Shown here in pieces: positions 35,756 through 64,000 of a DNA stretch of 64,000 bases. Each line of letters opens with the position of its first letter. The first letter of the stretch is position 1. The notes beneath the pieces are model-generated. The model was given only the letters and a program-made list of their open reading frames with translations, was not told the origin of the DNA and did no database searches. Source of the stretch: Amphiscolops sp. MND2022. Its lineage: Eukaryota. The DNA lies in contig OZ076409.1 of the NCBI GenBank assembly GCA_964187785.1, positions 78,556,001 through 78,620,000 on the forward strand, written 5' to 3'. The translations under genes and the position numbers were made by a program.

Positions 35756-35879
35756 GAAATATTTAAAGCAAATATTTCTTGAAAAATAACAACTGTTTGT
35801 GCAACATTTAATATCTAAAGCAGATATTAAACAAAAATTCACTTTTTGACAACATTTAGTATCTAAAGCAGATACTAAA
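35756..35879 (+). promoter_or_regulatory. Three covarying stem-loops with an AAAGC loop in the leader (candidate packaging signal)
   Basis: GAAATATTT-AAAGC-AAATATTTC; TTTAATATCT-AAAGC-AGATATTAAA; TTTAGTATCT-AAAGC-AGATACTAAA. Confidence 0.7.
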
Positions 35880-40400: not shown

Positions 40401-42541
40401 TCCTCTCCATTTTTACCATTCAAGACTCACAACAACCATTGAAACTTGTTACCGATAACCTTGATTTAAACAATATTTTGGCAAACCAACAGGATGACCC
40501 AGTCCTGAGCACTGTTAAATCATGGATAATTAAAGGCAAAGTGCCGTCAAAAGATGTCGAGTCAAGACAATGCAAGGGATTACTTGGCTACTCAAATCAA
40601 TTTGAAAAATTGTTCATCGATGAAGAAACCCATCTTGTTTGTAAAACTAGCAAGCATTCATCACGACAAATATGTTTGCCTCGCAACTGTTTCATTGAAG
40701 CTTTCAATGTTGCACACGACCATCGACTTTCAGGACATCCCGGATGTGAAAAGACACTTTTGTCTCTGAAAAGATTTTTCTATTGGCCTGGTATGTATAA
40801 ATGGGTGCGGACTCTAACGAAGAGCTTCCTGATATGCCGAAAAAATAAACAAGTCAGAAAGAATCAAAACACCGCTCCAAATGAAAAATGGGGAGAAGAA
40901 ATTCCTTATCCCTTTCACACTGTTCACATCGACCACAAAGGACCTTTGAATCCCATGAGTGACGGAAAACATCACTGTTTAGTTGTGATTGACGCATTCT
41001 CACGATTCATACAAGTTTACCCAGTCAAGTCGACTGATGCAAGTAATACTATTGAAGCCATGACTTCTTTCATTACTTCATTTGGCATTCCTCAAAAACT
41101 TGTATATGATAGAGGTACGTCGTTCATGAGCACTGATTTCTCAACCTTTCTCTTGGATTTAGGCATAACGCATGCCCCAAGAACTAAATGGTCCCCTTGG
41201 ACTAACGGCAAGGTTGAAATCCAAAACAAACACCTCAGTCGATACTTTCGATGCTATCTTTCCGAAGCAGGAAATAATTGGGCCAAGCTGGCTCCTCAAT
41301 TCGCCTTTGCTCATAACACTTCAGTGAACGCCAGTACAGGAGCAACTCCCTATGAAGTTGTTTTCGGATTTAAACCACAAATTCCGATTTCGTTGAAACT
41401 AGGTCTCGTAAGAGACGACAATGATTTGTGTCAATCCGAATTCTGTCAGTCTTTACCTGACCATTCACACCTGAATAAAGACACGAAACATTCTTGCATC
41501 GACTCCTTACTGACGTCAAAGTGTTCATTGGATTTGTTACACAGAGAAACACAATTCAAAAACATATACAGAAAAGTATATACAAAGGTTCGTAAAGCGA
41601 ATCATCGATCTCTGCCGTACCGAAACAAGTACAAACTTGCTAAACCATTACGTGTTGGACAAAAAGTACTACTCGAAAATCATCAAGTCCCATTCGGGAA
41701 ATCACAAAAACTGTGCGAGCTCCGAAGTGGACCGTACACTGTGACTAAAGTGATCACGAAAGTGAACTACGAAGTCGCGCTCGATTCGGATCCAACGAAG
41801 ATTCATGTCGTTCATCGTAATCATCTCGTTGAATTTTTCCCTCGTAATAATGACTTACCGACATTGTTGTCCAATTACGAAAGGCCTGTCAACGACGACA
41901 GAACCGAACATTTTTACAACGAGTATGCAAAGAATCGACTCTCCGAATTGAACAAACCAATTGAAACGCTTGCTGAACGACAGCACGTACAAGAATACTT
42001 ACCTATATTTCCCGACACACCTGGTCCATCCAGGATGAACACGACTTATAGTTCGCCTGCTAAATGCGGCTCCGCTCATTCGACACCGACTTTCTTAGCG
42101 AGCTCACCCGACTCTGGCATCCCTCAGTCATCTCCTCAGACTCCTATTTCATTTCAAGGAGAATCGCCAGCAATAACTAGTCAGCCAACCACACCTAGTC
42201 CTTTACCCCGCAATATTCCTTCAACTAGTACTGCCGCTGCTCCACGCTCACGAAAAACGGAAACATTCTTAGAGAGTGGTACGGAAAGCCTTATTTCTAA
42301 TATTATTATCATTTCTCTTTTTCTACTCTCTCTCGCCAAGTCATTCCAAACAAATCCTATGCAAAGCGCATTTGTATATCTTTCTACTGTTTCTATCTCT
42401 ATTTATACAAGATGTTTTACTTTATTCTTTTCCTTTTTCCTTTTTCTTGTGCAAGTGATGACTTTGACAATGTGTCAAAGAACTTGTTTGTATCTCATTA
42501 TGATTGCACAAAAATGCAAGACAATCGAATGTACTCCCTGA
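37388..42541 (+). CDS. pol: Pol polyprotein PR-RT-RNase H-IN (true C-terminus uncertain, possibly 42300)
   Basis: LIDTGA protease; DLASAYNQ and YIDD RT; VDSS/RELCG/CDHKPL RNase H; HIDH/YDRG/NGKVE DDE integrase; GPY motif. Confidence 0.96.
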   Translation: MQSFKLIKSPNQQSEESNETPHIPTAGTSGQHFYIELFQYAVGDKNKNNGLSTQFLIDTGATCSIINRETFTEINKIQPLVVTPLEKSPLAANGHAMPMKGKTIIQSAFDVEYSCVIEHTVYVSDSPEARMNILGMDFLANFGEFINLRNPMLILTVFPGKCVKLSPYLDKPFPYFSQVNSVELTQDITIAPYSTRVLSLIARDEDKHLFKQGTSFRLHQDILDTGIYTYHVYCSQDESKYPLMLNNPNPNSITIRKGILGYTLLDSVQETSQLMSVVDNVAFIEYLKTSESQWNKDLHVCSTEPYIYSLTEIDSRKQMAESAISQNELATDFSNEVKSLQPKMPKTASDIKRKQLDDEFYAEFSPAERNFLEKFDFSESDINDRELQHLLRVLVENNDVFSKFTYDVGKITQTFHVQLKKNAELRKQRPSKVPLHYRDRLEILLNELQRAGIIREMGNDVEMDSLFTNPIIILPKGDTVKLVIDARYLNSITDLTNYSWPLEPVQMLLTRLDGVYYTTSDLASAYNQVPLTEDTKKLTSFIVGGKQYMFERGFYGLCGLPNFFSRIMTIHFAEMIAKKQVITYIDDVILQAKTKQEMWNNLDSYFKCLRSSGLKAAPNKTKLFLRKVQFLGHIVSDKGIQPVAKKVQDLKNLKSPENKRDVMRILGSLGFYSTFIKNLHVDSKPFYELLRDDTPFKWTKEHENLFQDIKNRISEETILAVPNPKYPFHIHVDSSSIGTGSILIQDFPSGKRIVSFNSRVFTKDEQKMSTLHRELCGIISALQTYEHFIIGSRHPIKVFCDHKPLLYLWARKGRLSHRFFRYQVIITQFTNLQIIWTPGKNLAFPDLLSRNVSLKDLNGHQLLHKEIPKDIKFFSQSGHEVQYLIDHNSPAESANDDFYPIVCTHLGETKKLHLKNDGTDLICTVYDPNSPKALFDVSDSFREGKDINIRRKWQTPPIVVEADVHENHYSGIDSETDNSDNEASDEDPLLNTEVVNASKEDVPFILSIFTIQDSQQPLKLVTDNLDLNNILANQQDDPVLSTVKSWIIKGKVPSKDVESRQCKGLLGYSNQFEKLFIDEETHLVCKTSKHSSRQICLPRNCFIEAFNVAHDHRLSGHPGCEKTLLSLKRFFYWPGMYKWVRTLTKSFLICRKNKQVRKNQNTAPNEKWGEEIPYPFHTVHIDHKGPLNPMSDGKHHCLVVIDAFSRFIQVYPVKSTDASNTIEAMTSFITSFGIPQKLVYDRGTSFMSTDFSTFLLDLGITHAPRTKWSPWTNGKVEIQNKHLSRYFRCYLSEAGNNWAKLAPQFAFAHNTSVNASTGATPYEVVFGFKPQIPISLKLGLVRDDNDLCQSEFCQSLPDHSHLNKDTKHSCIDSLLTSKCSLDLLHRETQFKNIYRKVYTKVRKANHRSLPYRNKYKLAKPLRVGQKVLLENHQVPFGKSQKLCELRSGPYTVTKVITKVNYEVALDSDPTKIHVVHRNHLVEFFPRNNDLPTLLSNYERPVNDDRTEHFYNEYAKNRLSELNKPIETLAERQHVQEYLPIFPDTPGPSRMNTTYSSPAKCGSAHSTPTFLASSPDSGIPQSSPQTPISFQGESPAITSQPTTPSPLPRNIPSTSTAAAPRSRKTETFLESGTESLISNIIIISLFLLSLAKSFQTNPMQSAFVYLSTVSISIYTRCFTLFFSFFLFLVQVMTLTMCQRTCLYLIMIAQKCKTIECTP
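37397..37403 (+). promoter_or_regulatory. -1 ribosomal frameshift slippery site T TTA AAC
   Basis: In gag phase directly before the TAA stop; pol lies in the -1 frame. Confidence 0.85.
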
Positions 42542-44766
42542 ACAAGGTAGCAGACTGCAAGATCACACCAGAAAACTTGTATGTCACCCCGGCTACTATC
42601 ACACTTTATCAGAAGAACTATCGGACTGATCTGGCAGCAACAATGTGTTCTGTCAAGGCCCATGTCTTCCGCTACAATTGTGGAATGTTTTCGCATTCGT
42701 CCTACGTTCATACTCAAAATAGTATAACGTATGACCTCATCGTTACCCCTGAAATGTGCCGACAGGCATCAAAGACGAACAAAATTAAAATTTCGTCTTT
42801 TAGCGAAAACTTCGATGCCCCAATTGAATTCGATACAAAGAAACAATCGAATTTCAATGATGGACAATCAGTCCGCACAACCATTCATTGCTCAAGTGGT
42901 CAAGTACAGCACTATACCTTCGAGACGTTCATGCAACGTGTGAATTTGACATTCGATTACGGAACCAAAGAGGTTTCCAATCCAAATAAACAAAAATTGC
43001 CATGTCTTTTAATGGAGGGTGGTTGCGAGACCACTACTTTAGACCCATTCGCTTACACGTGGGATACTCCCGAAAACTGCGTGATGACAAAAATCCTCAC
43101 TCAGGAAGCAAAAATGCTCAAGTATCCATTGTCAACGAACAGAAACGAAAACCAATTTTTCCTAATCAGCGAATATAATGAGACTGGCAAAGGAATGAAC
43201 CTCAAAATCAAAGTCTTCCCTGAAAGCTATGAGCTATGTGGGAAACCTGAACGATTGTTCAAAACAAATTTTGAGAGTCTATTTGTGACTTACCAAGGAG
43301 GTTTCGCAATGCCAGGTGGAGAACTACGAACTAAAGAACATGCTTTTAACGCCTACCAATTTTCCATTGACAACTCTAGCCAGGTCTCTTATTCGTCATT
43401 ATCTTTCAGCAAATCAAATGGCCAATGGATTGGTGCACAGCCTTGGCATACCGTCGGCGCGGATGAAATTGATTATGAATTGCACTTGGGAACAAAGTTA
43501 GACTATATAATGTACTTCAATGCGAAGCAATTGAGGCATTCTGAAATGACACTTCTGCAGAGTCAATGTGAACTCGAACGAACTCAAATGTTAACTATTT
43601 TAATGTTAGCAATGCAAAACACAAGACTTGCCGGTTACATGTTAACTGGAAACAGGTCTATGTTCCTTGACACCGATGGAAGTGTCGCATGGTTATACCA
43701 TTGTCCGAAGTTTTTGTCGCCCTTGAAAGTGCTTGATAAATGTTATGATCGAATCCCGATCATGTTTGAACGGTCTACGAAATTTGTAGATCCCATCACC
43801 CGTCAGACTTATGATTTTGCATCCGAGATACCCTGTTTGGGAGATTACACAAATGTGTTTCAACTTGATCTCGAAAATGACAATTCCTGGTACCAACTTT
43901 TACCTGAGCCCATGCCTTTCAATAAACCTTTGTTGTTCAAGCCAACTGAACTTGGACATATTACTCAGTTTCCAACTTTCGACACCAGGCGTGCTGGAAT
44001 GTACACCCCAAATCAAATGAAAAATTTTTGGGATAATGTAATCCACAACTCTGCTTCTGATACATTATTGAAGAAGCTTACTCGGACTATTTTGACTCGA
44101 GGTAACTCAGTTCGAATTTCCGAACCGGGAAACTTGGAACGTCTTTTGAGTCTAAATGATAGACTTCTGTTGGATCACTTGTTGACGCCTTCTTTTTTCG
44201 TCGATAAATTCAAGGAAACTTTTGGCGAATTGGGATATATTATCCAATGTTTAGGAAACTTTTTTGCTTGTTTCCTTTTGGTAAAGTTCGTTATTGATGT
44301 TGTTGTCATTGTCCTCCGAGGACTTGAAATTCGAAAAGTTTCTGGTGCCACTTTTGGTTTTGTCAGAACTATGTTAGGCGCAACTTTTAATTTATTTGTT
44401 CTCTCACTTCAGACTCCAATGTACGAAAATGAGGAAAATAAAAGGATTTCAAATGGTTTCTCGCAGAACCCTGCAGGCAATAGACCTATAGCTGCACCAA
44501 TGTACGAAGAAAATCCGACTCTTTTGTATCCTCAAGTACATCTCTTGAACAATCCGATTGCGATTGGTTCTACTCTTAATGAAAGACGAAGAGCTGAGTC
44601 AAATGTATTAAATCAAACAGGAAATGCTCCTAGTACATTAAATACCTTTTTACAAAATAACGATGGCAATAACAGTTCTGGAAATGCTCCGACTACTGTC
44701 AATGAAAACGCTCCTAGTACCTCAAATAACAACAGTAATGGAAATGCTCCATTACCCCCACCATAA
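42412..44766 (+). CDS. env: Envelope glycoprotein, chuvirus G / class III (gB-like) type
   Basis: 784 aa; N-terminal signal peptide, SHYDC motif, Cys-rich ectodomain, QCELER...AGYML...WLYHC...CYDRIPI...FVDPITR block, transmembrane segment and cytoplasmic tail. Confidence 0.85.
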   Translation: MFYFILFLFPFSCASDDFDNVSKNLFVSHYDCTKMQDNRMYSLNKVADCKITPENLYVTPATITLYQKNYRTDLAATMCSVKAHVFRYNCGMFSHSSYVHTQNSITYDLIVTPEMCRQASKTNKIKISSFSENFDAPIEFDTKKQSNFNDGQSVRTTIHCSSGQVQHYTFETFMQRVNLTFDYGTKEVSNPNKQKLPCLLMEGGCETTTLDPFAYTWDTPENCVMTKILTQEAKMLKYPLSTNRNENQFFLISEYNETGKGMNLKIKVFPESYELCGKPERLFKTNFESLFVTYQGGFAMPGGELRTKEHAFNAYQFSIDNSSQVSYSSLSFSKSNGQWIGAQPWHTVGADEIDYELHLGTKLDYIMYFNAKQLRHSEMTLLQSQCELERTQMLTILMLAMQNTRLAGYMLTGNRSMFLDTDGSVAWLYHCPKFLSPLKVLDKCYDRIPIMFERSTKFVDPITRQTYDFASEIPCLGDYTNVFQLDLENDNSWYQLLPEPMPFNKPLLFKPTELGHITQFPTFDTRRAGMYTPNQMKNFWDNVIHNSASDTLLKKLTRTILTRGNSVRISEPGNLERLLSLNDRLLLDHLLTPSFFVDKFKETFGELGYIIQCLGNFFACFLLVKFVIDVVVIVLRGLEIRKVSGATFGFVRTMLGATFNLFVLSLQTPMYENEENKRISNGFSQNPAGNRPIAAPMYEENPTLLYPQVHLLNNPIAIGSTLNERRRAESNVLNQTGNAPSTLNTFLQNNDGNNSSGNAPTTVNENAPSTSNNNSNGNAPLPPP

Positions 44767-45039
44767 CGTTTAAAAAAAAACGTTTGCTCTTTAGTGAAAT
44801 TTCTCTTACTTAAAAGTGATAAGGCTTCCTGGAATAGATACCACTGTGATTATTGATGTTTTTCTTCTGGTCACAAACATAATGACACAAGCACAAATTG
44901 ACTTACAAACCCTATATAACTCGCTTTCTAAAATTTAGTATAGTCGCCAACTACCAACTACCAGTTATTCCAAGTTATCCTTTGTTGTTCTTTAATTATC
45001 AGCTTAGAATTTAACGACACTTAATTACTCCTACCCACG

Positions 45040-46599
45040 ATGTCTGATGCTATCGACCTATTCGAGCCTGAAGGTTTCATCCCTGATGACCTGCGTCCTT
45101 CTAATGTAACCTTTAGGTCCCGGAAAACAAAACGGGTTAAACCCTGTTTTCAAAAACATCACAACCAGGCTAACAAGCGATTAGCCTCTACCGACCCTGA
45201 GCCAAATTGGCCAAGAAAAGCTACTAAATTCGAAAATAATGTGAATTTCGACCCTAACCGCCTGTCAAAGAGACTCGGTGATGGGAAAATTAAAGGCCCC
45301 TCGTGCGTGTCAATGAGACTCGACGACGGGTTACCCAAAGAAAAAAATTGGTTTCCAAGCCTTAAAGAAAGGCTTGAAATCCAAAAATCCCGCGAAAATA
45401 ATGTGGACACTGACGACCCCAAATTCATCAAATTCCTAAAGTATGGTATACGGAAGGACCATAATGAATGGTTCCTTGCCACTCCTAAAACAGGGATTGA
45501 AATTGTCAACAAAAAGTTGAATTGTTCTATTGTTATTCCCCCCGACAATTGCCCAGCCATAAAAGTTACTCTTCCGAAGGACATGAACCAATGGAGGTTA
45601 AAAGACCGTCTTCCTGAAGAAAGGAAGTATGTAGTTTATAATCATCAACTTGACTCCATGATAAAGGCCCCCTTTGGTGTTATCACCGCGTTCCCTGACG
45701 ATCCAAACCCTCTTTTCAACGATAATACAAGTACAATCAGTTCGTCAGATAGTACATCCTCCTCCAGGGAAGTGTCCGCCGATAATCCCCATATTCCATC
45801 CAATACTAGATCCACAGGCAATGCGACTACACAAACTGGGAATGAAGAGTGGACCGATACACCTGATACCAATCTTACCGCTGCTCTTTGGAAAACCGAA
45901 TTCGCAATTGCCGAATTTGAACAACAAAATCGCAGCCTGAACATTGAACTAGCCAATTTGAAGAATGCTCTCTGCTCTGCCAATCGGTCACGAGCAATGG
46001 CTAAAGAGAGTGCCAATCGAGCTGAATTCAAGTTAGAAATCTCCGAAAGAGTAACATCAGACCTTTTCGATGAGAATAAGGAACTGAAAAGCCAAATTGA
46101 AGAAGCGACCTCCAAAGCGGAGTCACTTCAAAGTGAACTTTTAGAATCAAACAAGACAAACATCCTCCTAAAGGAGAAACTTGATGCCTTCGATGTGGCA
46201 AATAAACGATTCAAGGAAATTCTTGATAAAAAGGACACTAAATTAAAGGACCAAACCGAAATTGACAAGCTGGTCAAACAACTGCAGACAATGAGAGTCG
46301 AAATCGACATTCAACGAGCCGAGGCTATTCAATTGATCCAGGCAGTAGATGCAAAACAGTATGAAAAGCTGGAAAAATGCTTACACGCCCTGCTAACCCA
46401 CGCTGATCACTGGGATTGGCAACAATACGAAAAGTACTCCATTTTTAACGTAAAACGAGGAAATGTCAAAACCCGACTTTCAACAGTCTACTATCCCATT
46501 GCATACAATTTTGACAAAGACCCCGAGTGGAAGAATAAATGTACTCGATTACCCTGGCCCATAAATTTAAAGCAAGTGCCAACTGGAAGGAATAATTGA
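45040..46599 (+). CDS. Accessory ORF4, coiled-coil protein of unknown function
   Basis: Intact 519-aa ATG ORF between env and the 3' LTR; E/K/L-rich heptad region at about aa 285-440. Confidence 0.8.
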   Translation: MSDAIDLFEPEGFIPDDLRPSNVTFRSRKTKRVKPCFQKHHNQANKRLASTDPEPNWPRKATKFENNVNFDPNRLSKRLGDGKIKGPSCVSMRLDDGLPKEKNWFPSLKERLEIQKSRENNVDTDDPKFIKFLKYGIRKDHNEWFLATPKTGIEIVNKKLNCSIVIPPDNCPAIKVTLPKDMNQWRLKDRLPEERKYVVYNHQLDSMIKAPFGVITAFPDDPNPLFNDNTSTISSSDSTSSSREVSADNPHIPSNTRSTGNATTQTGNEEWTDTPDTNLTAALWKTEFAIAEFEQQNRSLNIELANLKNALCSANRSRAMAKESANRAEFKLEISERVTSDLFDENKELKSQIEEATSKAESLQSELLESNKTNILLKEKLDAFDVANKRFKEILDKKDTKLKDQTEIDKLVKQLQTMRVEIDIQRAEAIQLIQAVDAKQYEKLEKCLHALLTHADHWDWQQYEKYSIFNVKRGNVKTRLSTVYYPIAYNFDKDPEWKNKCTRLPWPINLKQVPTGRNN

Positions 46600-46811
46600 A
46601 AGCCCCCTATAAACTGCTCTCCAACCAAAACTGAAACTCTTTTAACTTGATAATTTGCTTAAACTTATTTAACCTTTAAAATTTCTTTATCTTAACGTAA
46701 ACTTTACATAAGTTTTACCCATTTTCCATTATACCCATTTTATACACATTATATTTATTAATTGATTTGGTATTACGACTAATGCAGTCTTCTCTGTCAA
46801 CTGGGGTGAGT

Positions 46812-47318
46812 TGTAGCAATGCGCTATTTCTAATCTAGTTCATTTTCCCAACAGAGGAAATTGACTCAGAGACATAATAATTTCCAAAGCGGAATTATTA
46901 GAGCATTTTAATTTCTAAGCGAATAGCAACGCGCTAAAAGGAAATTGGAATTCCCAAATTCCTTTAATGCTCAGCCAATAGGAAAAAGCCACGCGAAAGT
47001 AGAACTGTCCTGAGCTGGAAAGAGAAAGACAGGTACCAATTCCAACGCGGAACACTGAGAAAGCAACAACTCTTTTCTCTTCTCTCAATTTTCCTTCTCT
47101 CTTGCTCTCTGAAAATCCCCCAAAATTGAAAGGACAAAGAGTCCCAAAATTGACAGAACATTATAAATTTTACAAGTCAGCGATTTGCAGGACTTAACAA
47201 AATTCTACTTACTGTAAACCTCCAGTTTAAATTTATCTTCCTTTTCGTAACACTTTTTGAGACTTATTGCTTAGGTTAGAAAGCGAGTACTAAGTAACCA
47301 AAACACCGGTTTACAACA
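46812..47318 (+). repeat. 3' LTR (507 bp), preceded by a short purine tract GGGGTGAG
   Basis: Near-identical to 35137-35644. Confidence 0.97.
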
Positions 47319-47488
47319 ATACCACAAGGTTAAAAATTCAAACCTATTCAATGAAGCGTGGAACTAACTTATCGATGAGACAGAACTAGACAAACTGATG
47401 GAAACTTGATAATAATTATAAGTTAGTTCCACGCTTCATTGAATAGGTTTGAATTTTTACCGTTGTGGTATTTTACCTCCGGTATTTT
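47319..47488. repeat. Inverted repeat (~70-bp arms) whose left arm was split by the LTR element
   Basis: 35116-35136 joined to 47323-47372 is the near-perfect reverse complement of 47418-47488. Confidence 0.9.
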
Positions 47489-50003: not shown

Positions 50004-50570
50004 TCAAAACTGGACCAAATTGTAAGAACTATGACTCGTGGTATCTCTTAAGTCACCTACAGATCTTGAATCTTTCTTTGCAATTTTTATTTTAGGCCCG
50101 GGTGCGCTTTCCCTGTTCTCCTGACTATTTGGAGACGAACTGGCCTCAGTGTCCCTGTGTCCCATAGAGGACATCGAGTTTGCAATATTCTGGATTTCTG
50201 GAATAACTCTTTCAGCTATAGCTGTCGATATAGCTCTATTTATTTGGCTATGCATTATTGACATCATAGATTCCATTTCTTGAGACAATCTAAGATTAAA
50301 CTCACTTGAAAAGGCTTCAAAGGATTGCCTGACTTCGTTTTGCCTCAAAGGTTCATTTTCATGTAAGTAATCTCTAAACTCATTTTCATGGTACACGTTT
50401 GTATCACCGTCCCCGTGGGCCGATGACTGATCTATTGCTTCAGCTAGTTCTCTTTCAATGGGATTATTATTTTCATTTCCCAGCATCACATCTAGGTTAT
50501 CATAGTCGGACAGCATGTCCATTTCTCTAGATCTCCTAGCTTTGGCTTTCTGACGTCTAGTAGAAGGCAT
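50004..50570 (-). CDS. LTR-embedded ORF, probably the N-terminus of gag, truncated at the element end
   Basis: ATG ORF MPSTRRQKAKARR (gag-like basic start); TATA-like run at 50719-50727 upstream; the last five codons come from flanking DNA. Confidence 0.6.
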   Translation of the reverse strand: MPSTRRQKAKARRSREMDMLSDYDNLDVMLGNENNNPIERELAEAIDQSSAHGDGDTNVYHENEFRDYLHENEPLRQNEVRQSFEAFSSEFNLRLSQEMESMMSIMHSQINRAISTAIAERVIPEIQNIANSMSSMGHRDTEASSSPNSQENRESAPGPKIKIAKKDSRSVGDLRDTTSHSSYNLVQF

Positions 50571-52998
50571 AAGAGATTATTGCAAGAGGCAAGAATTTAA
50601 ATTAATATCTTGGGCTTGCAAAGTGAAAATGAACGGGTAGTTTTAATAAACAGTTCGCAACAGTAACGCATCAAAGTATCATCAAGATAATTCTGTCCCC
50701 GGGGCCACCAGTCCCGGTTATATATATTTGAATTTGCATGACACTCAATAAAATGGTGGTCATAATCTAAAAATAGCCTTTAGGGCTTTCTAAATATAGC
50801 TACAATCTATAAATAGCAGGCAACGTCAACATTACATCATGTAGATCAAAGGTCCCTCTTGGCGGCAAATATGGCAGCGGGACCATGAGTCCGTTAGGAC
50901 AAGCAACTGCTTACATGCATACTAAGCAACGTACTACATGTATGAAATACATATTACATGTATGAAATGCTTACTACATGTATAGATAGTAATTTTACAT
51001 ATATTCTAAACTAAATATATTGCGCAAATTACATATGAAGCAACACCATCAAACTAATTCTAAAATATTAAATCAGTCCTTTGAGGGCCAATAGCGCCTT
51101 TTATCAGTTATCAAAAGATTAATCATTACATAACCAGTACTGCTAGGTAGAATTACACTCTCAATTAAAGCGCGGACTCAGTGTCCAATAGACTGGTACA
51201 GCCCAGCGCTTTATTAGCAGGCGGCATATAGCTGTCTAGTCCTTTAATTCTATTAAGCTAGCACGAGTAAAGGTTACATAACACTGCGCTATGATTGGAT
51301 GACGAGTTAGTCGGACTTGCGGACCAAGGCGACAGGCAAGAAAACATTTGAACGCGTTTCCTTTACCTGTACGCCTTGGTGTCCAATTAACTCGTATTAA
51401 TGCATAGAATTACATAATATAACTTGCACAAAATGAAATATATAGAGTTTTACATGACTTTTTAGAGCAACAATAATAGTTTTCCTTGTAAGTTTTCTAA
51501 TTTAATGGAAGGGTGAAGGGTTCTGCTTTCTTGTAACTATGGCAGATTGAGTATGTGTTGCCATCACAGGCGGACGCCTGGGACACTCCCCCTGGAATTA
51601 GCATAAAACAGCCCACCTTCATTCCTTCCAAGAAAGCTAGTCGTCTCGCGTTGAATTGCTCGGCAGATTCCCCTCGGACGGCCGTCTTGTGCAGATAATC
51701 TATGACCGCCTCGTCCTGAATCTGTTCCACAGATTTTCCACATACGAGACAATCTGTGCACCCTGTAATATACGGGTTATCTGCTGCGGTCGGCCCACGG
51801 AAGTGAATACCACCTTCGTGTCGTTGGGAGCTGCTAGAAGTGGCTTCCGCGGTTATCCTCCAGTCGCCCGTAGGATATTTATCGATTGCTGGGGGCGACA
51901 TAGGTGTGTCGACCATCGGGATCAGTTGGCTGCATAAGTTAATTGGGTGGTCATTTCTAAGCCGTGAGTCCCTCGCAATTGGTCCTCTGCCCATTTCCAG
52001 CTCAAAGTACCCAGCGTCGAACATCGGTCCCGGCACATATGCAAGCCTGGGAGTAGTAGCGCGAGTCACTTCTTGCTTTCCTGAAGCTGAGGGGATTTGA
52101 ATTCCTGCTGAAGTCGATGGCAAGTCCAGTTGTCTTTCCACACATTGGGCCAAGAGGGCCATTTCATCGTCATCAGACAGGCTCTCTAAGTCATCCACGG
52201 ACGCCCTGCTTGCGCACTCTATGTCGTCGTCACTAGAGATGTAAATGACACCGTCTCCCGGGGCTGCTCCTTGAAAATCTTCAGGATAATACTCAGGGGA
52301 TTCCGAGTCAAATTGACTTGCAAGGAATTTATTCATTATTGCTTTTTTGGCAATCTTGGAAGTTATTAGTTTTAGGTTTTGAAGTTTGATAAGCAGCTGA
52401 ATTTCGAGATTGAAACTGAAACAATGGCGATTTCTTCCTCCGTCGACTAGCGGGATTTTCTTTTCAGTTTCCCGGGGTTTTGCCCTTCCCGGCTCACTAA
52501 ATCCTCAATAACAAAATTCCTTTTCTTCGGCATCTTTCAACTAGCCGCTCGGTCTTCTTTGAAAATGCCGACTGAGGCTTTGTTGACTTACATCAACTCT
52601 ATCAACACTTCCATATTAAGAGCGTCGCTTCAAGTGTTTATTAACACTCATCAAGCACTTAAAAGTTTCAAGAGGGTGAAGCTATGGCAGACGGCCACGC
52701 CGTCCATCAGCGTTTCTGATCAACCAATAGGAATGCAGCAAAATTTCTCTTGAGTAAAAATGGCTTCCCAAGGTCGTAAATCCATATAAGGAATAATATA
52801 AAATGACCTGAAATTAAATAAAATCCTGGTAAAATCATGAAATATTTAATAAAATGGTAAAGTTTCGAAATAAGATAAATGGAAGAGTGTAGATATCGCT
52901 GGCAGACTCTATCCACATAATAGTGTAAATTGTAAATATCTTGTAAATTTGACACCAAATTGTATAGCCACGAACTCCAACTTTGACATCTTGTCACA
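50021..52998 (-). repeat. Putative ~3-kb 3' LTR
   Basis: Minus strand: purine-rich GAAAAGAGAATTGGCAA (53015-52999), then TGTGAC ... CTTACA; cannot be confirmed without the 5' LTR. Confidence 0.5.
51497..52336 (-). CDS. Accessory ORF (279 aa), acidic N-terminus, SIM-like VIYISSDDD and CxxCxxC cluster
   Basis: Intact GC-richer ATG ORF, sense to pol; minus-strand AATAAA near 51210. Confidence 0.75.
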   Translation of the reverse strand: MNKFLASQFDSESPEYYPEDFQGAAPGDGVIYISSDDDIECASRASVDDLESLSDDDEMALLAQCVERQLDLPSTSAGIQIPSASGKQEVTRATTPRLAYVPGPMFDAGYFELEMGRGPIARDSRLRNDHPINLCSQLIPMVDTPMSPPAIDKYPTGDWRITAEATSSSSQRHEGGIHFRGPTAADNPYITGCTDCLVCGKSVEQIQDEAVIDYLHKTAVRGESAEQFNARRLAFLEGMKVGCFMLIPGGVSQASACDGNTYSICHSYKKAEPFTLPLN

Positions 52999-53610
52999 TT
53001 GCCAATTCTCTTTTCAATTCATTATTTTCAAATTCTTTCTAGTTACTCTTTGTATTATCGTCCAGTATTTAATCATCTCTAGTCTTTTAGTCTTCTAGTC
53101 GTATTTACTCCGTATTCATTTGAAGTAGTCATTTGTAATTTCTTCCGATTACGTCTTTTTGTGGATTTCTTGGGTCATCCTAGGACAATCGACACTGAGT
53201 CCCTTTTGCTAATTCATCTCCAGCAATCTTTCTTGTCCTTCATCAAAGAAGAATTTGTCTTCTCCCTACAACTGCTGCTGTATTGTCACCAGTTCAGCTT
53301 CGTCATCCTCCTCTATTGATCGCTCAGCTTTCAATTCAGTGACCACCAGTCTAACTGTACACAGTACTCCCTTCTCAAGACATCCTTCTTTGCATTCAAA
53401 CAGGTCAGTAGCTTTTCAGGTTTTGTTTCTATTTTAGTATTGAATTAATCTGAGGCTTGATCAGGGCTCTCATTTCATTCACGTACTTCCTGTCCCATAA
53501 CACAAGTGTTCACTTGAGTTCGAAATATCTACTTCCGGAAGATTTTTAATGCGGTAATGGACTCTTTCTCAGGAAGTTATCCGCTTGAGTTTATCTCTTT
53601 CTGTTTAGAC

Positions 53611-56600
53611 ATGTCGTCCGAAGAGCAAAATGATATTGTTCCTGCCACCGCTACTGCATCCATGACTGAAGAAGAAGTTGCCATTCCCGAAGAAGCTGGT
53701 ACCAGTCAGGCCACTTCGATCCCTGTAGACCCTGAGTCCACACAACTAGTGCCGCCAGGAGATAATCCTGATAAGCCTGCTCCGACCCCAAGCCCTTCTA
53801 CGGATGAAAGCATTTCCGCTTACATTGACCGTCAATTGCAGACTTTGGGTTGCCAGGGCCTTGGTCTTGACATCTCCTTCTTGCCTCCTACCACATCTGC
53901 CATTGTAGACAATGTACTAAAGCCAACCGCTGAGAAAGCTTCTGAGTCGGAGCCAATTCCCCAGGTCACGACTGGGTCACAAGACAAGGAGTCTCCTGAG
54001 GCTGAGATCGAGCGGGGCAATGATGCTGTCAGTGAAGCTGGATTTTCCGTCAACAAGGCGGATTACTTCCAAACGGATACCAGCGACGCTGAAGAATTAC
54101 TTGATAGTTCAGGTGCTGAGACCGTCAAGGAACCTCCTTTCTTGATTGCACTGGATGCGCTAAGCTCCACTGGGACTGAGACCCATGAGAATGTTAAGCC
54201 ATCAACCTCGGCTGAGTTACCTGGCACATCTTCCCCGAAGCTCTTCAGTCCTACCAGGCCTTTATCTGCCTCTGCTCGAACGCTCATAAATCAGCATTTC
54301 AATGAGACCAACCCGTGCATCCTCCCGGTAGGCCATGCGACCGTAGCCTTCAATCAGGGGCAAGTCCATTCCATCTTGCGTGCCGTCTCCACGGAAACCA
54401 TTACTTCTTCCCTACACCAAATGAAGAACATGCTGGAAGAAGCGATCCGGGCGGGAATTCGCTCCCAAGGTACTCCTCAAGGATCCGGGAAGCAGCGAAT
54501 CAAGATCTTCCGTAAGCAGAGCGGCAGCCTTGGATCAGGTGCGGAAGACAGTGACGTTGGGACTGAGGGGTACACTAGCGGAGCCCTCAGTTCAGAAGAT
54601 GAGTTTGTCATCAATTCTCAAAGAGCTGGCAAGGATCTGAGCATCAATCCCCCTCCAAGTCCTCCAGATCAAAGTTCGACATCAACACCTGGCCCATCAT
54701 CCGCACAACAAGTCCCTAGTCCAGGATTCTGCTCAACTGACTATGAGCCTCTAGCCACATTGACCACTGACCAAGCTTCTGTCTCAAGTCCACCTCGCAA
54801 ACGTCGTCGGCTTCCAGGACGCACAGGCAGAATAATGAAAGAAGCCTATTTCAAAGGAATTCAGTGGACTCGGACATTCGTCACCGGCCCCCTTGACCCA
54901 GAACACAACAAACATAAGTTCTACTGCCAGATATGTAAGACGAACGTTTCCATTTTCTCAAAAGGAGCACGGGAGATTGTCCGCCATTTCCAGTGTGAGT
55001 CGCATTTCCGCAAAGATCAGCGCTGGAGATATGAGCACCTAAGGAAGAAGGACAAGGTGACTGGCCGGACTGTGTACGAAGTCAGAGGGAAGAAGGGCCA
55101 ATTGTTGACTCCCTTAGAACTTGAGAAAGAGAAGCCTTTCTTCATGCAAGTTCCTTTGGTTGAAACTGGCAGCAGTAACCCCTTCTACGAGGATCATATG
55201 GCTGGCCTGGGCTCCATCGCTGGGCAGGAGGAGATCAGACTGTGCGTCCAAATCTCCATGGTTGCTCTCTTCGCTCCTCGTTGTGGAGATCTAAACGTCC
55301 TTGAGTCGCTATGGTCACAGATTGGCACTGTTACCAACCATCAGAGTCTGTTCTCTCCTTACGATTGGGGCTCCTCCAAACTGACAGTAAGTATTGGCGA
55401 TTTCTAGCCTCAGGGTCCTTTAGCCCTAACGTAGCCCCGATTCATTTTCATCCTGGTTAATTTTGTTTTAGACGATCTTTCATCACATCTTCCTCTGTGG
55501 CATCGCTGACATCGCGTATCAAGTCAGTGTCACGGGTCAGTACTCTCTGGAGTTTGAAATGCGAGGCACCTACAGCTTTGTCTCGATCCGGTTCTGGAAG
55601 GGCGAATCCCTCAATGTCGTCCGTTTGCTACGATACCGGACTGCTTCAGAGCCTGCAGCTGGTTTCCTGTTGGTACTTTCCCGCCTCTTGTCCGTCCTAT
55701 CAACACAACCTCAGATTGTGAGCGTGTCTGGGTGTCCTGCAGAGGTGATTCCTCTTCTTGAACGTTCTTGCCTCTTCCAAAAAGGGATTGAGTACCCTTT
55801 TCGATTTGATGCTCTTTGTCTGCCGGACCTGATGCATGAACGATGGGGCAGCGTGTTTGGCACTATCAGCTTCTTCTCTCAGTTGAAGTTTCTGATTACA
55901 TTCTTGGACGGTTGCGGTGGACAGCTTTGGGCCGCCCTAATGCCAGAATTCGTTAAGGTAAGGTCACTGTCCGTAAGACTGTAGGTCCAGTTTTGAATTG
56001 CCTCCAATAAGCATGTTGATTGTAGGCGATGACTACCTATCACCTGGAAATTGCCGCTGTACCAGCCATATGTTCGGAACTGATTGCGAACTGGAAGTCT
56101 GTGCACCAACATTTGACGAAGATAGCACCACCTCAGGTCCACCAGGGGGTTAAAAACAAGCCCCAAAGCCTCGAGTGGGAAATCATAGCTGATGATTTCT
56201 TCACCATCAAGCTGGAGTTCTTCGCACGAATTGTCCGCGATTGTTAGTATATTGGTTTTCCTCTTGTCTACGGACCTCATGGTCCCAGTTTCTCTTACCA
56301 CTATTTGAGGCTCATGCTAGATATAGTAGATTGACACGCTAGGTCTAATGGTGTCATAGGGACCCTTCAGGATGGTAATGTTTTGTTTTCCAGACACCAA
56401 GAGCTTCGAGAGTCAGTTTGCACAGCGAAGGGATAGTGGCTTCTACACCTTCCGAGAGTTCCATACTTTCATCCGCAAGTTGGCAGGTCGAGCACTACTT
56501 CCCAGACACGTGCCTGATATCCTGGACTGGAAGTCGCTGGGCGATTTGCAAGGACAGAATTGGCGACAACTGTCTAACCGAGATTTCTTGAGTCGCTTGA

Positions 56601-57544
56601 AGCTCAAAGAAAATTTGGATGCCGCATGCCATGCTCGTGTCAGGAGAATTTATAGCGAGAAGCAACTGACGCCTGAAGAGACGGAGACAGCAGCTGAGGC
56701 CATTCGGGACGATTTCGCCACCAAGGCCCGAGGTTACCTCGTCCATCTTTTGAAAGTCTTCCTTGCCGACATTAGCCTGAATGCTGGTATCGTAAGAGGC
56801 CTGGGCAGTTTCGATCCAGTAGCCCTCCTGAGTCTGCCGCTTGAGCAAGCCACATATTGTTTCTCCGCTCTGTACAGATCCTTTAGTTTGCGAGGCTGGT
56901 TAGAGAATTCCCCAGAGACTGATGCCCGAGACGAGTACATCGATTTCGTGGAGTTTTTCCGCCAAGCCAACTCTGGAGTCAAGGATACCCCAGAGGTCTT
57001 CACCGACATGGTAGCCTTTCTGATTGGTATGCCTGAATTGAAGTTGCGGAAACATCTGTTTTACATCTTCCAGTTGAGTTGTCTGTGCCTGACTTCTAAG
57101 TTGCCAGAGCTCCCAGCCATCAAATTCTCTGGAGTTGATTGTAATGATCCCCGAAGTAGACTTTTCGATGTCATCATGCCTGCACAGTCTTACCTAGCTA
57201 ATGTGGCAAATTCAGTGGCTGTGTGCACTACAGAAGCTTCCCTGGGTACCTTCAAAGATCTGGAATTCCGATTCAGTATTGGCAACGTCCCAGGAGACCC
57301 TTGGTCACACGTAGACAGTTTCGGCAAGGCTAATTTGCATAAAACCTTAATCGCAGTCTACAAAGCTCTGGGCAGGAGTGTCCGTCCTGACATCGAGTCC
57401 GCTTCCAATTCCTCGTCCAAAGAAGGGGGGAAACAACGTAAGCTGTCCCCTGGTAAAGGCAAGAAAGTTGGCTTTCGGGCAGCTGGTGAAACTGAAGCCG
57501 CAAAGTCCAGTGATGCGAACGCTCCTGGAACTTCTAAATCTTAA
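53611..57544 (+). CDS. Spliced antisense gene, ~1209 aa; BED-like C2H2 zinc finger, probably hAT-transposase-derived; exons 53611-55386, 55472-55957, 56026-56242, 56394-57544
   Basis: Three GT-AG introns with matching phases 0, 0 and 1 join four ORF-track fragments into one 3630-nt frame; FYCQICKTNVS...RHFQCESH finger; PPRKRRR NLS; AATAAA at 57722 and 57750. Confidence 0.87.
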
Positions 57545-57780: not shown

Positions 57781-60700
57781 CTAGTATCTGTATTCATCAG
57801 TAAAGTTGGGGGCAGGGTTAGGTCGAAGATTGTATTTCCCTCCTCTAGGGCTCGAATTTTCATTTGAATTTCCATTTTCTGATATTCCGGGCACGGTAAT
57901 ATCTGCGCCTGTGTTTGAAACGTTTGCCGTATCTTTTAAATCATTAGTGACGTCATTTTCATTCTCAGTGCGCTGTGACGTTTGAGTCGGGGGGGGGGGG
58001 GGGCGGTTCGTCACTGCTATTGTTCTCTCTCGGGGATATTTCGTCCTCGGTAACGTCATATTCTGTCGTACGCTCATTGTAACTTTCATTGCTGACGCGT
58101 TCGTTCTCGGTGACGTAATTTCTTGTCGTGCGCTCGCTGCAGCTTTCATTGCTAGCGCTTTCCTCGTCAGTAACGTCATTGTCCGTATTAGTGGACTCGG
58201 CGTCCGTCGGCCGGCGTGTGGCCACATCTGTCCAATTTTCCTTCCTCGGTTCAAATAAGTCGTACTCAAAATCTACTTCCCATGAGATAGTGTACAAATC
58301 GTCTTGCGGGATTACTATCTCATTGTCGGGTTGTAATTTTTCTCCATCGTATTTGTCCTCTAAAGGGGCATTCGGGACGAATTTCTTTAGTCTAATGCGA
58401 TGAAGTATTTGAGTTTTATTTGTATTTAGACGACGGACAATATAATTGTCGTTGGACAGTACTTTCTGAATGACGAATGGTCCAATCCACCTGTATTCCT
58501 TGAATGGAATTTTTGACGCCTGACTGTCCGCTTTAGGCTGTAGAACAAAACAGTAGTCCTTTTCTTTAAGCGGGGCAGCCTTTGCCTTTCGGTCGTAATA
58601 GTCCTTATATTTCAAATAAGACTGCATTATGTTCTTTTTTGTTTGATCTATGAGGATTTGTGTCCTCTGCTGTACTTCCTCCGCAAATTCTGTAGTTGGC
58701 ATAAAATTTTTATTGGGGTTATTTCCCAATTTGTGGTCTAGGACGTTATAGGGAATCCGGCCGTGGAAGACTTTACTCGGTTCACATCCAATGCTAGAGT
58801 GGTATGTAGTATTGTAGTTGAGTACTGCTAATGGTAAATATTTATGCCATTGGCGTCGATATTCCCCTGAGGCCATTTTCAAATTTGTTTTGAGTGAGGC
58901 ATGCGTCCTTTCGAGTTTGCCAATTGTTTGCGGGTGCTTTGTAGTAGCGCATTTGAGTGTTATACCCAAAATTTGAGTTATCTCAGCTATGATGGTCGAT
59001 GTAAATGCGGACCCTTTGTCTGTGATGAGAGTTGTTGGTAAATATGAATGTTTCGTCATGATATCAATTATCACCTTGGCTACATTCGTGGCTGTTGCCT
59101 CAATTAGCGGGTAGGCGAATAAGTACCTTGAGAATACATCTATAGCCGTCATCACCGTCTGGTATCCGCCACTAGTCGGTAAGTTTGGTAATAAGTCTAT
59201 CTGCATGGCATCTTCTGGACCAAGGTCCCATTCGGGCAAGTTCAACAATTCTGGTGTAATTGTATTATTTGGGACTCTTTTGTCTCTGGCGCACGTTTCG
59301 CATCCCTCTACCCATTTTTTAACGTATTTTGCTATGCCAGGGTAGTAATATTTTTGGCGGATCTCTTGCAGCATTTTAGAGATGCCAGGATGTCGATGTG
59401 CCGTGCCATGTATTGCTTGCAGTAGTTCTTTCAACAGGTGCTTTGGCAGTAAGATTTGGTGGTATTTGATTTGTCCCGTTTCGTCGTAATACTGTCGGGT
59501 CACTATTTCGTCCTTGAGGACTATACGGTCTAAATTATTTAAATAATGTTTATACCGAATGTCCTGCTGAAGGATTTCTTCAGAGTATTCTTCATTTTGA
59601 ATTTTTGCTTTTAAATGAAGCAAAGTCGGATCTTTAGATTGTTCTAATAGTATTTGGTTGGTTCTACATAGTTTCTGGGTGAAATTGGTAATTTCATCCA
59701 CTACATTTTCAGATATAGTATCGATTTGGATGACGGTCTCGTCGACCTTGAGTCCTGCTTTTGATTGTCTTTTCCTTTCCCAAATTTGTTCTTCTGTTTC
59801 ATTGTCTTCTTCTGTAAAGAACACTTGTTCTTCTTCAGACACGCCGGCTGATTGGACATTAACTTCAATGGGTTGGGTTTCAACGTCCGCTCGGATTTTT
59901 AGGACTAACTTTTCAGTGGGGTCCATTTCCATGCGGGACAGGTAGTCCGCCGCTGTGTTGTTTTTGCCTGGAATGTGCGCTATAGTGAAATTGAACTGAA
60001 TGACAAAGTCACACGCGTTCCATAATGGCGGCGGTATTATTTTAGTCTGGAAGAACCTTGTGACCGATTTGTTGTCTGTGAGGATAATCACCGGCTTAGG
60101 TGTGCCCCAGAATATATGTCCAAATTCTTTGAAGGCGTAATAGATGGCTAAAAATTCCTTCGCATAAATTGACATTTTAAGTTGTGAAGGAGTAAAAGTT
60201 TTTGAACCATATGCAATAGGCGCATAGGATTTCTTGGTTGAGGTAAATTTCTGATTTGGATCATCTTCAGTAAGTATAGCATATCCGGCTGCTGTAAAGC
60301 TAGCATCTGTCATCAGGACTAGCTGTCGATTTGGCAAGGGCTGCCTAAGGGCTAGCTGGGTGCATCTGTCCAAATCTCTATTGATCTCGTTGAATTGTTC
60401 AATCAGTTCCGTTGTGACTAAGACCTTTTCGTCCTTCTTTAATAGTTGAAAGAAAGGGACTAATTTTTCTGATAACCTCGGTATGTAGTTTCTATAATAA
60501 TTAAGGAATCCGAGGTAACGTTGTAAGGCTTTTTTGGATTTTGGGAATTTCGTTTTTTCTAGGAATTGTGTGACTCGTTCCTTCTGGGGCTTGACACCCT
60601 CAGGGGTGATTGTCCTTCCTAAGAAATCAATCTCAGTTGCTCCGAAGTGGCATTTATGCATCGTTAATTTCAATCCAGCCTCTCGGATGCATTCGAATGT

Positions 60701-62935
60701 TGCTCTGAGATTTTTAATGAGATGCTCCGCGTCGTTGGCCGCGATGCCAATATCATCCACGTATTGGGCACATTGATCGGCTTTGATGACACGGTCCAAA
60801 TATTCTCTCATAAAACTGGAGAATGCCGATAAGGCTCTGCTGAGACCTTGGGCCAATCTTCGATATGCGAACGTTCGGCTGGCAAAGTTGAAGGCCAACA
60901 TCTCTATAGACCGTTGGTCCGCCATTTGAAGGCAGTGGTACGCTTGCGAACAGTCAAGCTTACAGAAAAGTTTCTTTCCGGCCATATGTTGTGCAGCGTC
61001 CGTTAAGGTGCTGACTGGATGGTTGTTGTTGATATAATCATCAGAAATGAGATTGTTGATCTTCCTGAGATCTACCAGTAGTCGTAGTTTCCCATTAGGC
61101 TTCTTTTGTGCAAAGATAGGGCTAGCGTACTTTGAGAATGGTAATGTTGTTATAATACCATATTTGTGTAGTGACGCTAATTCGACCAATATGTCCTCTT
61201 TTAAATTGACCGGAGTTGGTAAGCTCTGGCTGTAGGCAGGAGAGTCGTCCTTCGGGGTCAATTTGACCGTGAATTCCTCATTCATACCGATGTCAAACCT
61301 ATGACGGGCAAATATGTCGTGAAATTCGACTAATAGTGCTTCTATCTGTTTGATTTCATGCTGTTGTAGCATTGAGTCCTTCCAGTCAAAGTTACTGAGG
61401 AATTTTTGTCGAGATTCTTCATTGTCTTGTGGATTTAGTTTTTCTGCTTCTTGCAGGTTTCGTAATTCTCTAAGAATTCTCTTTTGTATTGGAGTATGGG
61501 ACTTTTCGTCCCCTGGCTTTTCGGGTGTTGGAAACCAGTATTGTTCGTATTGGTCATTGTTCCTGTTGGCTTTGAGAAGACTGCTGATATAATAAATAGC
61601 ATCTTCTTCATTTTCATTGAGTAGGTGCCAAGTGGACACTGGGTCTATTGGCCTAACATGTTTCATTTGCTCTGGAGTCATCACAGAGAAATTCGCTATG
61701 TGCATCCCTTTTTTGAGTTTAAAGGGCTGATCTGTGAAGTTGTTGACATGGATCCTCGTAGTCCCTTCGTCCAATGTGACTATGGCGGCACAAAATGTTA
61801 TATCATTTTCTTCATTTAGAAGGTCACTGGGTTGTAAGATTCCAGTGACAGCGTTTTCTGCATAAATTTGAGATTGGATAGGGATGATTGTACGTCCATT
61901 TGGGGGAATCGTTATATCCTCGGGGTTGAGGATAGGTTCCATCACATTGGAGTACTTATGGTCAGCTGTTTTCAATTGCATCGAGAAGAAGGGAAAGTTA
62001 AGTATGCCTTGGCGCATATCTAGGACTGTGTGGTTTCTTTGTAAGAACATAAGTCCAATTATGGGGCTGGATAATTTTTCCATCACTATGAAGATTTCGT
62101 GGAACTCTATGTCCCCTACTTCGAACTTCAGTTCTACTGTACTCTTCGGAGTTTCCAGGTCTCCATTTGCGACCATAATTTGGAATGACGGGGCAGGACC
62201 CTCTTTCACTATTGATTGGGGTGCAAGTAGCCGTATTTTCCTAAGGTCAGCTTCTGGTATCGCACTGGAGTGGGCCCCAGTGTCTATGAGACCATCTAAT
62301 GTTAGTTCTCCAAAGTCCATTGGGAAATATAGCATCCGCCTTTTGATTTTGAGGCCAAGGTTGGTGGAGAGGGGAACGTATGACGGTTCTCCTTGTTTTT
62401 CCACTAAAATGTGCAAGAAGGCTGTTTCGTCTAAAAGGCTGTTGGGGCCTTGAAAGTTTTCTTGCTCTTGAGTTTCCTCTAGTTCTTCTATCAGTGCTTC
62501 GGAATTTGGCTGCCAAAGTTCAATGAGGGCTCTGGATAGTTTGTTGTCCACTATCGGGGGATCATCCTCGTCGTCCGTTGGTGGATATTCGTCTTGTCTA
62601 AACTGGAGTTTTTGTCTGTCGTAGAGTTCGTCGTCCCAATACGGGTCTTTGCCGTAATCAGGATCGGCGTATTGAGGGTGATAATCTTCGATCAATGGTA
62701 AGGGACGGAATTGAGTCTCGAAGTCTTTAGTATAGTCAATTTCGTAAAATCGGTCTGGGCGATCATTATGTACTATTTTATAAGTTCGAATACAGGCTTT
62801 TTCCATTTGTTGCTGCCAGACAACAGTGGGAATTCCTTTTGTATCCTTGATTGTTTGGCTGTATTTGATTATTGGAGGATCTGAAATGACATATTGTCGA
62901 ACCGACATATAGTCATGTATTTGGAGTCGTGGCAA
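57781..62935 (-). CDS. pol: Pol polyprotein PR-RT-RNase H-IN, with an apparent indel in the G15 run (57989-58003) near the C-terminus
   Basis: LIDTGA; LDCSQAYH and YVDD; TDAS/AKEF/TDNK/ADYLSR; HHCC; QID/TDKG/GKLE DDE; GPF; the other frame ends GKYNLRPNP...Y stop at 57781. Confidence 0.95.
58030..58180. repeat. 60-bp (20-aa) tandem repeat in the pol tail, about 2.4 copies
   Basis: DVTDEESASNESCSERTTRN / YVTENERVSNESYNERTTEY / DVTEDE. Confidence 0.8.
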
Positions 62936-62937: not shown

Positions 62938-64000
62938 TTAGTTTTTTGAATCAGATTTTTTAGTATTGGATTGGCTTGAAGTAGCCGTTTCTGGGTCATT
63001 TGCTTTTTTAGGCTTTCCTTCGGAGTCTATAGCATTTCGGTCATTTTGTTCTGTCTGCATCCTTTTGGGTCGCAGGTGGGCGCCAGCGCCTTGCCAGCAT
63101 CTTTCGGTTGGGTGGTTCTTTTTGCCACATGTGTCACACGGTGGGTAAGTTGGACGCTGAGGTTTTTTACCGTCTTTGTCCTCCATTTCCTTTTTCTTCT
63201 TGAGTTTCGGGCAGTTTTTGTAATAGTGACCCGTCGCTTTGCAGTATGAGCATTGGGCGTCTTTATTTGTGTTGATATCATTGGACAGTAAGTTGTTATG
63301 GCTCGTGGACGCCGAGGCCATAGTGGCCATTGGCAGATCATCTGACTCTTCTAATGCATTGAGTTCCAGTTCTCTTTCAAGATGAGCTACTATTTCTTCA
63401 TACGTGCCGTTCTCCAGACGGGCCATGTTGACAGATCGTTTCAGTTTTGGGGGTAATTTCGCGTATAACAAGCTGTCAATCATGCTTTTAGCGTTTTCCC
63501 CAAATGCTTTTTCTGCACCTTGGTTCAGTTCTTCCAAGAAGTCTGGTAGTTTCATTGTACTTGGATCGAAGGTCAATCGGTGCCATTTATGCTTTGCTGT
63601 TGCTTGTGATTCCGGTTTGACATATTTCCTCCGGAATATGACCAGTACGTCCTCGAGAGTTTGACGGTTGATTGAGTTTATGTTCCTGAATGTCTGTAAT
63701 GCTCCCTTTCGTAGCAAAGAATGAAAGTGATTAATTTTCATTTGTTCTGTCATTGTGGGCTGCATTTTGATCATCGTATGGAACAAGTCCTCAAAGAGCT
63801 CAAATTTTTCACTTTTCCCATCAAATGTCATCGGGGTTGTTTGTACGGGTCTGATGGTCATAGATTGCGGTTTGTTTTGCAAATTGACCAATACGTCGGC
63901 TAGTCTATTAAACGGGTCCTGAGGAGGTTCAGGAGCCTCTGGGGCCGGGGCTGGCAGAGTCGTGTCCAGAGAGATATTGTGTGTAGATTGTTGTCTCTCT
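62938..64000 (-). CDS. gag: Gag (partial; frame open to the window end) with two CCHC knuckles
   Basis: CSYCKATGHYYKNC and CDTCGKKNHPTERC; no stop between 63999 and 62941. Confidence 0.93.
   Translation of the reverse strand, partial: ERQQSTHNISLDTTLPAPAPEAPEPPQDPFNRLADVLVNLQNKPQSMTIRPVQTTPMTFDGKSEKFELFEDLFHTMIKMQPTMTEQMKINHFHSLLRKGALQTFRNINSINRQTLEDVLVIFRRKYVKPESQATAKHKWHRLTFDPSTMKLPDFLEELNQGAEKAFGENAKSMIDSLLYAKLPPKLKRSVNMARLENGTYEEIVAHLERELELNALEESDDLPMATMASASTSHNNLLSNDINTNKDAQCSYCKATGHYYKNCPKLKKKKEMEDKDGKKPQRPTYPPCDTCGKKNHPTERCWQGAGAHLRPKRMQTEQNDRNAIDSEGKPKKANDPETATSSQSNTKKSDSKN
62941..62947 (-). promoter_or_regulatory. -1 frameshift slippery site A AAA AAC
   Basis: In gag phase directly before TAA; pol lies in the -1 frame. 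Confidence 0.85.

Follow-up and report, generated by a model that had tools for sequence, protein, structure and literature searches.

The window, by which we mean the whole stretch of 64,000 nucleotides that was analysed (GC content 30-51%), holds tandem arrays in its first half and two LTR retrotransposons in its second half. The repeat units of the arrays (1-31100) measure about 2.27 kb and 2.0/1.49 kb and contain long inverted repeats; the same region includes a degenerate satellite with a period of about 185 bp. Element 1 (35137-47318, plus strand) looks intact: its two LTRs (35137-35644 and 46812-47318, 508 bp) are 99.4% identical, it has a 4-bp target duplication, and it carries gag, pol, a 784-aa glycoprotein that matches the Pfam family PF24664 (Monjiviricetes_fusion, E 6.5e-41) and a fourth ORF of 519 aa with a coiled coil and no family. 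A self-complementary element of 155 nt (78%) at 47318-47472 abuts the 3' LTR of element 1.

Element 2, large and abundant in its animal genome, is a minus-strand Ty3/gypsy retrotransposon that runs from past position 64000 to 50021. The proteins are perhaps similar to those of acoel flatworms. The C-terminal part of its gag, from residue 210 onward, lies at 62938-64000 (minus strand), and its 5' LTR is located beyond the window. The pol gene follows at 57781-62908 (minus strand) and its Pfam domains stand in the order protease, RT, RNase H and integrase (positions 204-291, 602-767, 833-957 and 1155-1326), which is the Ty3/gypsy order; the best PDB match is Ty3 Gag-Pol (E=6e-45). A dUTPase-like domain, barely over the Pfam cut-off, sits between protease and RT at pol residues 329-411 (about 61920-61680, minus strand), and no env was seen in the element. 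The C-terminus of pol (57781-58272, minus strand) apparently continues in another frame past a run of 15 G at about 57988-58002, which appears to be a mutation or a sequencing error, and this stretch also contains a 60-nt tandem repeat at 58040-58176.

Two accessory genes come after pol: a three-exon gene in antisense orientation (53557-57544, plus strand) and a gene of 279 codons, ORF279 (51497-52336, minus strand). The interval 50021-52998, described in the first-pass annotation as a protein-coding LTR of about 3 kb that holds a 279-aa gene in its U3 region, is assigned by sequence to the 3' end of element 2. The best explanation of the locus is an element of more than 14 kb with the order LTR, gag, pol (with dUTPase), antisense gene, ORF279 and LTR. 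The 64-kb window contains no second copy of the element 2 LTR and no tRNA gene was found in it; related DNA was found neither among viral contigs nor among genome contigs, and the only relative DNA is one metagenome contig of 1275 nt (L001), too short for a boundary. Of ten queries in an exact look-up, six were absent, with the start residue possibly misread: two pieces of pol and four small ORFs from the vicinity of the proposed boundary.

Gag codons at the right end of the LTR

The minus-strand ORF of 188 aa at 50570-50004, which was absent from the first-pass annotation, consists of 183 Gag codons (50022-50570) and five codons of flanking DNA. It falls in a cluster of 74 short forms and is 96% identical to 562-aa Gags over 97% of its length; the search yielded 193 clusters, and the comparisons made here refer to the best 120 of these 193. 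From residue 210 onward, one full-length Gag (P0008) agrees with the gag of the window (63999-62938) at 345 of 353 positions. The full-type Gags (n=43) have M-V-T after residue 183, while 20 proteins do not. Two of the latter were excluded, one with a deletion into pol (P0047) and one of full length (P0006), and the junction-type truncated Gags diverge after residue 183 in 18 of 18 cases: the next residue is K, N, T, M, R or S, and past it all 18 have unrelated tails. These residues can all be encoded starting from A, which fits a repeat that ends in ...TAC-A, exactly at 50021. A full Gag (P0005) and a truncated one (P0278) that lie on contigs of equal size are identical at 182 of 183 positions.

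The proteins point indirectly to a terminal direct repeat ending in CA, in which the same 183 codons precede either the rest of gag or unrelated flanks. The CA end that had been proposed at 50021, with CAAAT adjoining on the plus strand, is confirmed by this point of divergence, and the 3' LTR, together with the element, ends in ...TTACA at 50021-50025 (minus strand). As all 18 truncated Gags part from the full ones at this point, Gag codons 1-183 make up the final 550 nt of the LTR, which would place the primer site inside gag. In the 5' LTR the Gag frame would pass through the primer-binding site, where a TGG directly after CA may be deduced from Y-M-V-T in the full Gags, into the remaining gag; in a 3' or solo LTR it would run out into host DNA. 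Such a read-out from the LTR end is found in P0010, a protein of 913 aa in which the LTR-borne fragment of Gag is fused in frame to the Gag of another element. In yeast Ty1, which is a copia-type element, gag also starts in the LTR and the primer site is inside gag, with about a dozen codons in the LTR. Element 2 is like Ty1 in this start, but 183 codons are involved instead.

The putative core promoter and R region are placed at 50630-50726 (minus strand) by the positions of TATATATAA at 50726 and ATTAAA at 50647. The genomic RNA would then start after the former and end after the latter, so that R would be short and U5, at about 600 nt, would have to be recopied as long minus-strand strong-stop DNA. 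This partition, with the Gag ATG at 50570, is deduced from motif positions, and R could instead be long if one of the other candidate poly(A) signals, AATAAA at 50244 or 50091 (minus strand), is used.

The promoter motifs that were listed in the first-pass annotation for the interval are all present, and their frequency was compared with 1000 Markov-1 simulations of the interval. Only the short TACATGTA repeats at 50935, 50955 and 50975 stand above chance: three are seen against a mean of 0.05, and none of the 1000 simulations reaches three. They form palindromes in a 20-nt tandem repeat (50932-50983; TRF period 20, 2.6 copies), which is a probable U3 enhancer. The other motifs do not exceed chance level: the CArG box is located one base off its reported position (52782-52791; P=0.24), CCAAT is present on both strands at 52724 (plus) and 51294 (minus) but occurs 8 times against 8.0 expected, minus-strand AATAAA, assigned to the 279-aa ORF and present at 51215, has P=0.08, and for the TATA run, present as TATATATAA at 50726, TATATA has P=0.15.

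ORF279 and the antisense gene

The complete 279-aa ORF claimed for the interval is present at 52336-51497 (minus strand) and is a gene of the element, with relatives in 80 clusters of 990 members (534 representatives at 50% identity). Relatives retain its length at identities that range from 97% to as low as 30%, and one with 36% protein identity is encoded on the metagenome contig L001; on these grounds ORF279 is regarded as a real and old gene. This distant relative (L001:1-480) keeps the upstream reverse CCAAT, and weak DNA likeness extends over 150 nt before its ATG.

The protein has an acidic N-terminus with a SIM-like motif, a CxxC, a helical hairpin and a GVSQAAACDG motif, and by eye it is acidic with no long hydrophobic stretch. 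In 33 of 46 representatives S-S-D-acidic follows a hydrophobic core, a pattern that fits the loose definition of the SUMO-interacting motif as given in PMC12751080; further conserved motifs are D-T-P-x-S-P-P, CxxCG and G-V-S-Q-A-A-A-C-D-G. Two helices are predicted at pLDDT 84-94. No Pfam family scored above cut-off (with 28 or 105 members included), there was no usable Atlas match, and the PDB sequences gave chance matches only. The models have pLDDT 49 (full length) and 63 (C-terminal 155 aa), and Foldseek searches of the PDB and BFVD returned nothing at E 0.001 or better (best VIA Z 4.6), a null result that indicates neither a new nor a known fold. It could be that ORF279 binds SUMO-modified silencing or transcription factors via the SIM-like motif; this is a tentative idea and we consider it doubtful, the looseness of the motif counting against it.

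The antisense gene comprises about 1155 codons in three plus-strand exons (53557-55386, 55472-55957 and 56393-57544) that are joined by GT-AG sites in phase 0, and the exon ORFs fall in clusters of 112, 76 and 177 members. It encodes a BED/C2H2-like finger, for which the Atlas leads are zf-BED and zf-C2H2_12 at 0.90. The Pfam and family search of the three exons found no transposase family and no TRP28 (PF04195).

ORF279 and the antisense gene stand head-to-head across 52336-53557, and the strand composition (purine/T skew) switches near 53000. This layout and the switch suggest one bidirectional promoter, probably at 52650-53000 (CCAAT at 52724, CArG at 52782 and a TATA-like motif at 52797). 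Divergent transcription of the two genes is plausible, and the promoter need not be in the LTR: an internal bidirectional promoter would drive ORF279 and the antisense zinc-finger gene as a divergent pair, and both products may be nuclear regulators of element 2. Hypothetically, a DNA-binding finger protein and a small acidic protein that binds SUMO could act together as an activator specific to the element or as an anti-silencing pair. The genomic RNA, which runs from R to R, would pass the AATAAA at 51215, so either this signal is weak or the ORF279 mRNA ends in R. The same CCAATAGGAA decamer occurs at 35300-35310 in the LTR of element 1 and at 52724-52733 in the probable intergenic promoter of element 2, where it faces the antisense gene.

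Start of the LTR

The number of ORF279 copies per element bears on where the LTR starts. At 70% identity or more there are 505 ORF279 members and 444 members in the matching Gag clusters, a ratio of about 1.1 that is uncorrected and noisy, as fragments enter both counts and some truncated forms enter the Gag clusters; the counts are suggestive of a number nearer one than two per element. Among two-member ORF279 clusters, nine of ten have their members on different contigs. The same holds for two rare intact subfamilies with two members each, 4-5 residues apart. Same-contig twins are seen for ORF279 in three clear cases and one tie among 153, and for full-length Gag in one clear case and one tie among 129. 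This Gag control is not zero, so the twin and count tests are suggestive only.

The best candidate for the polypurine tract and the LTR start is AGGGGGAG|TGT at 51585-51593 (minus strand), within the ORF279 codons P-G-G-V-S. A start at 51585 would give an LTR of 1565 bp and a nef-like overlap with ORF279, and we put its chances only a little below even. The gene would then be mostly internal, only its last 29 codons overlapping the polypurine tract and U3. Of the 119 TGT sites that lie between pol and the ATG of gag, 51585 has the highest rank by G content; its run of eight purines is unbroken, and the junction resembles the true junction of element 1. The same ORF279 codons of L001 hold a G-run and TGT despite 36% protein identity. 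The Val column at this site (V86 L11 I0) is the sole Ile-free one of 25 aliphatic columns, and in frame-shifted relatives of ORF279 the third base of the Val codon is G in 9 of 9 and 8 of 8 cases (one unrelated match, P0199, was left out of the frame -1 tally). All 17 out-of-frame reads retain the TG-T, and so does L001. However, the first Gly is replaced by P, A, S or T in 24 of 123 distinct contexts, and a clade with P-P-A-V-S retains the TGT without any purine tract. Additionally, the Val codons of ORF279 are biased to GTG (7 of 12, and 8 of 16 in L001), and with this bias and the kinship of the 17 reads the invariance of the TGT is weaker than it looks. The 29-residue fragments of ORF279 that a 5' LTR of this extent is predicted to encode would score about 47 bits, below the 150 matches listed.

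One would argue that the LTR starts below the ORF279 stop (about 51450-50800), is 0.8-1.4 kb long and contains only the Gag codons, with ORF279 as an internal gene of the ORF3 type. Such a start fits all results that favour one ORF279 per element, ten TGTAA sites, the inverted repeat of the TTACA end, are available in 51454-50836, and the conservation of the TGT at 51585 may be due to protein constraint plus codon bias. However, the stretch holds no site that is in the top 12 by G content or purine run, and we consider a start in this region rather unlikely.

An LTR of about 3 kb that starts upstream of ORF279 would place this gene and the bidirectional promoter in U3, as with MMTV sag, and it is unlikely in our view. 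The three clear reciprocal-best ORF279 twins on single contigs (87-94% identity, against 70-86% to others) and the protein P0307, in which ORF279 is joined to sequence at 53488, are as expected from LTR pairs and an internal deletion and speak against an internal ORF279; the P0307 junction is most simply a deletion if ORF279 sits in the 5' LTR. The ORF279 totals exceed the antisense exon clusters by a factor of 2-3 (about 2.5), where each exon count is that of a single cluster and therefore a lower bound. The compositional switch near 53000 is also in agreement with a long LTR, and the N-terminal junctions show no pile-up within ORF279 profile positions 1-217. Against it stand the same-contig twins of full-length Gag, the members of the two rare ORF279 subfamilies on different contigs and the ORF279 to Gag ratio of about 1.1. 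The start proposed by the first-pass annotation (52996-52998, minus strand) also proved weak: it had been called the best PPT-TG start, but by purines in the preceding 15 nt six TG sites score higher and 15 tie with it. Among the 119 TGT sites mentioned above it is one with a run of only 2 purines next to the TG; its purine tract is 7 nt away and belongs to the margin of a broad zone rich in purines. A homolog search with a frame crossing 52998 found only three proteins: one begins at the TG and is uninformative, and the other two share the upstream context of the window, one of the pair lacking the TG. Half or more of the flanks would be foreign at an LTR start, thus the two cases of shared context are weak but adverse evidence. 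We regard a start exactly at 52998 as very improbable and one elsewhere upstream of ORF279 as quite improbable; that ORF279 lies wholly inside the LTR is improbable, and so is an LTR of about 3 kb, nearly half of it coding, in which U3 would hold a complete gene for a SUMO-binding regulator, U5 would hold a third of Gag, and a bidirectional promoter would drive the antisense zinc-finger gene from the 3' LTR.

Most improbable of all is that the antisense gene and ORF279 form a captured or nested DNA-transposon-like cassette that is carried along passively, or that the LTR is longer still, which the BED/C2H2-like finger leads at 0.90 and a second G-rich tract at 54653 (near 54650) might suggest: no exon matches a transposase family, the exon clusters are not larger than the Gag clusters, and the ORF279 classes track those of Gag where contigs are shared and retain their length over 30-97% identity, a pattern that speaks for long selection inside the element.

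Therefore, the claim of a protein-coding LTR holds in one part: the LTR is coding, but what is confirmed is the N-terminus of Gag on the U5 side, while a 279-aa gene lying wholly in U3 and a length of 3 kb are unproven and the indirect evidence leans against them.

Relation to known elements and meaning

Element 2 resembles Ty3/gypsy elements (Metaviridae) in having gag followed by protease, RT, RNase H and integrase and in its CA end. It is unlike them in its 183 Gag codons in the LTR, its dUTPase-like domain and its two accessory genes after pol. HIV-1 nef lies partly and MMTV sag wholly in U3, as described in PMC12789967; ORF279 would be like nef if the overlap is partial, as in the model with a start at 51585, or like sag if it is complete, as in an LTR of about 3 kb. 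HIV-1 and MMTV, however, are retroviruses with env, and no sequence or fold similarity between them and element 2 was found. The product of sag is a type II transmembrane superantigen. The plant elements Retand, Grande and RIRE2 have 2.9-6.6 kb between pol and the 3' LTR and a conserved antisense gene that was proposed to be regulatory, according to the accounts in PMC11963269 and PMC7264820. Element 2 is similar in its long region between pol and the 3' LTR (4.8-6.2 kb) with a conserved antisense gene. Unlike that of Retand, this gene is spliced, encodes a BED/C2H2-like finger, faces a second gene that is in sense orientation and has no TRP28; lacking TRP28, element 2 is not classed as a Retand member.

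LTR elements of bdelloid rotifers carry a dUTPase and extra ORFs, their ORF3s being of env, GDSL or DEDDy types in the account of PMC5408684, and the CERV protein of the C. elegans gypsy element Cer1 is described as a nuclear regulator (PMC10309623). The dUTPase and extra ORFs are shared by element 2 and the rotifer gypsy elements, but no env, GDSL or DEDDy match was obtained, and the likeness to CERV is one of description. According to PMC3485330, LTRs can exceed 3 kb, as in rice Retrosat2, though this is uncommon, and the usual description of an LTR is that it does not code for replication enzymes. Retrosat2 is a plant element with an ORF0 upstream of gag-pol and in this is unlike element 2. 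No published description of the present elements was found in the literature searched, with most subscription journals and the repeat databases outside its scope.

The protein-coding LTR is confirmed in a form that the first-pass annotation missed, since it unusually carries the first third of a capsid gene; a 3-kb LTR with a gene in U3 is unproven and improbable. Even when this is read with caution, a Gag fragment of 183 codons that begins with an ATG and reads into the flanking DNA is present in each of hundreds of 3' and solo LTRs. Truncated Gag restricts the copy number of Ty1, as reported in PMC7175516, and the LTR-borne Gag fragments are therefore candidates for self-regulation of the element or for the seeding of new genes. 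If the LTR were about 3 kb long after all, every solo LTR would act on its own as a regulator cassette and would also join a Gag fragment to host DNA. Conservation of the two accessory proteins spans great divergence, and none of the families searched matches them. Thus element 2 may offer a tractable animal case for the role of extra and antisense ORFs in LTR elements.
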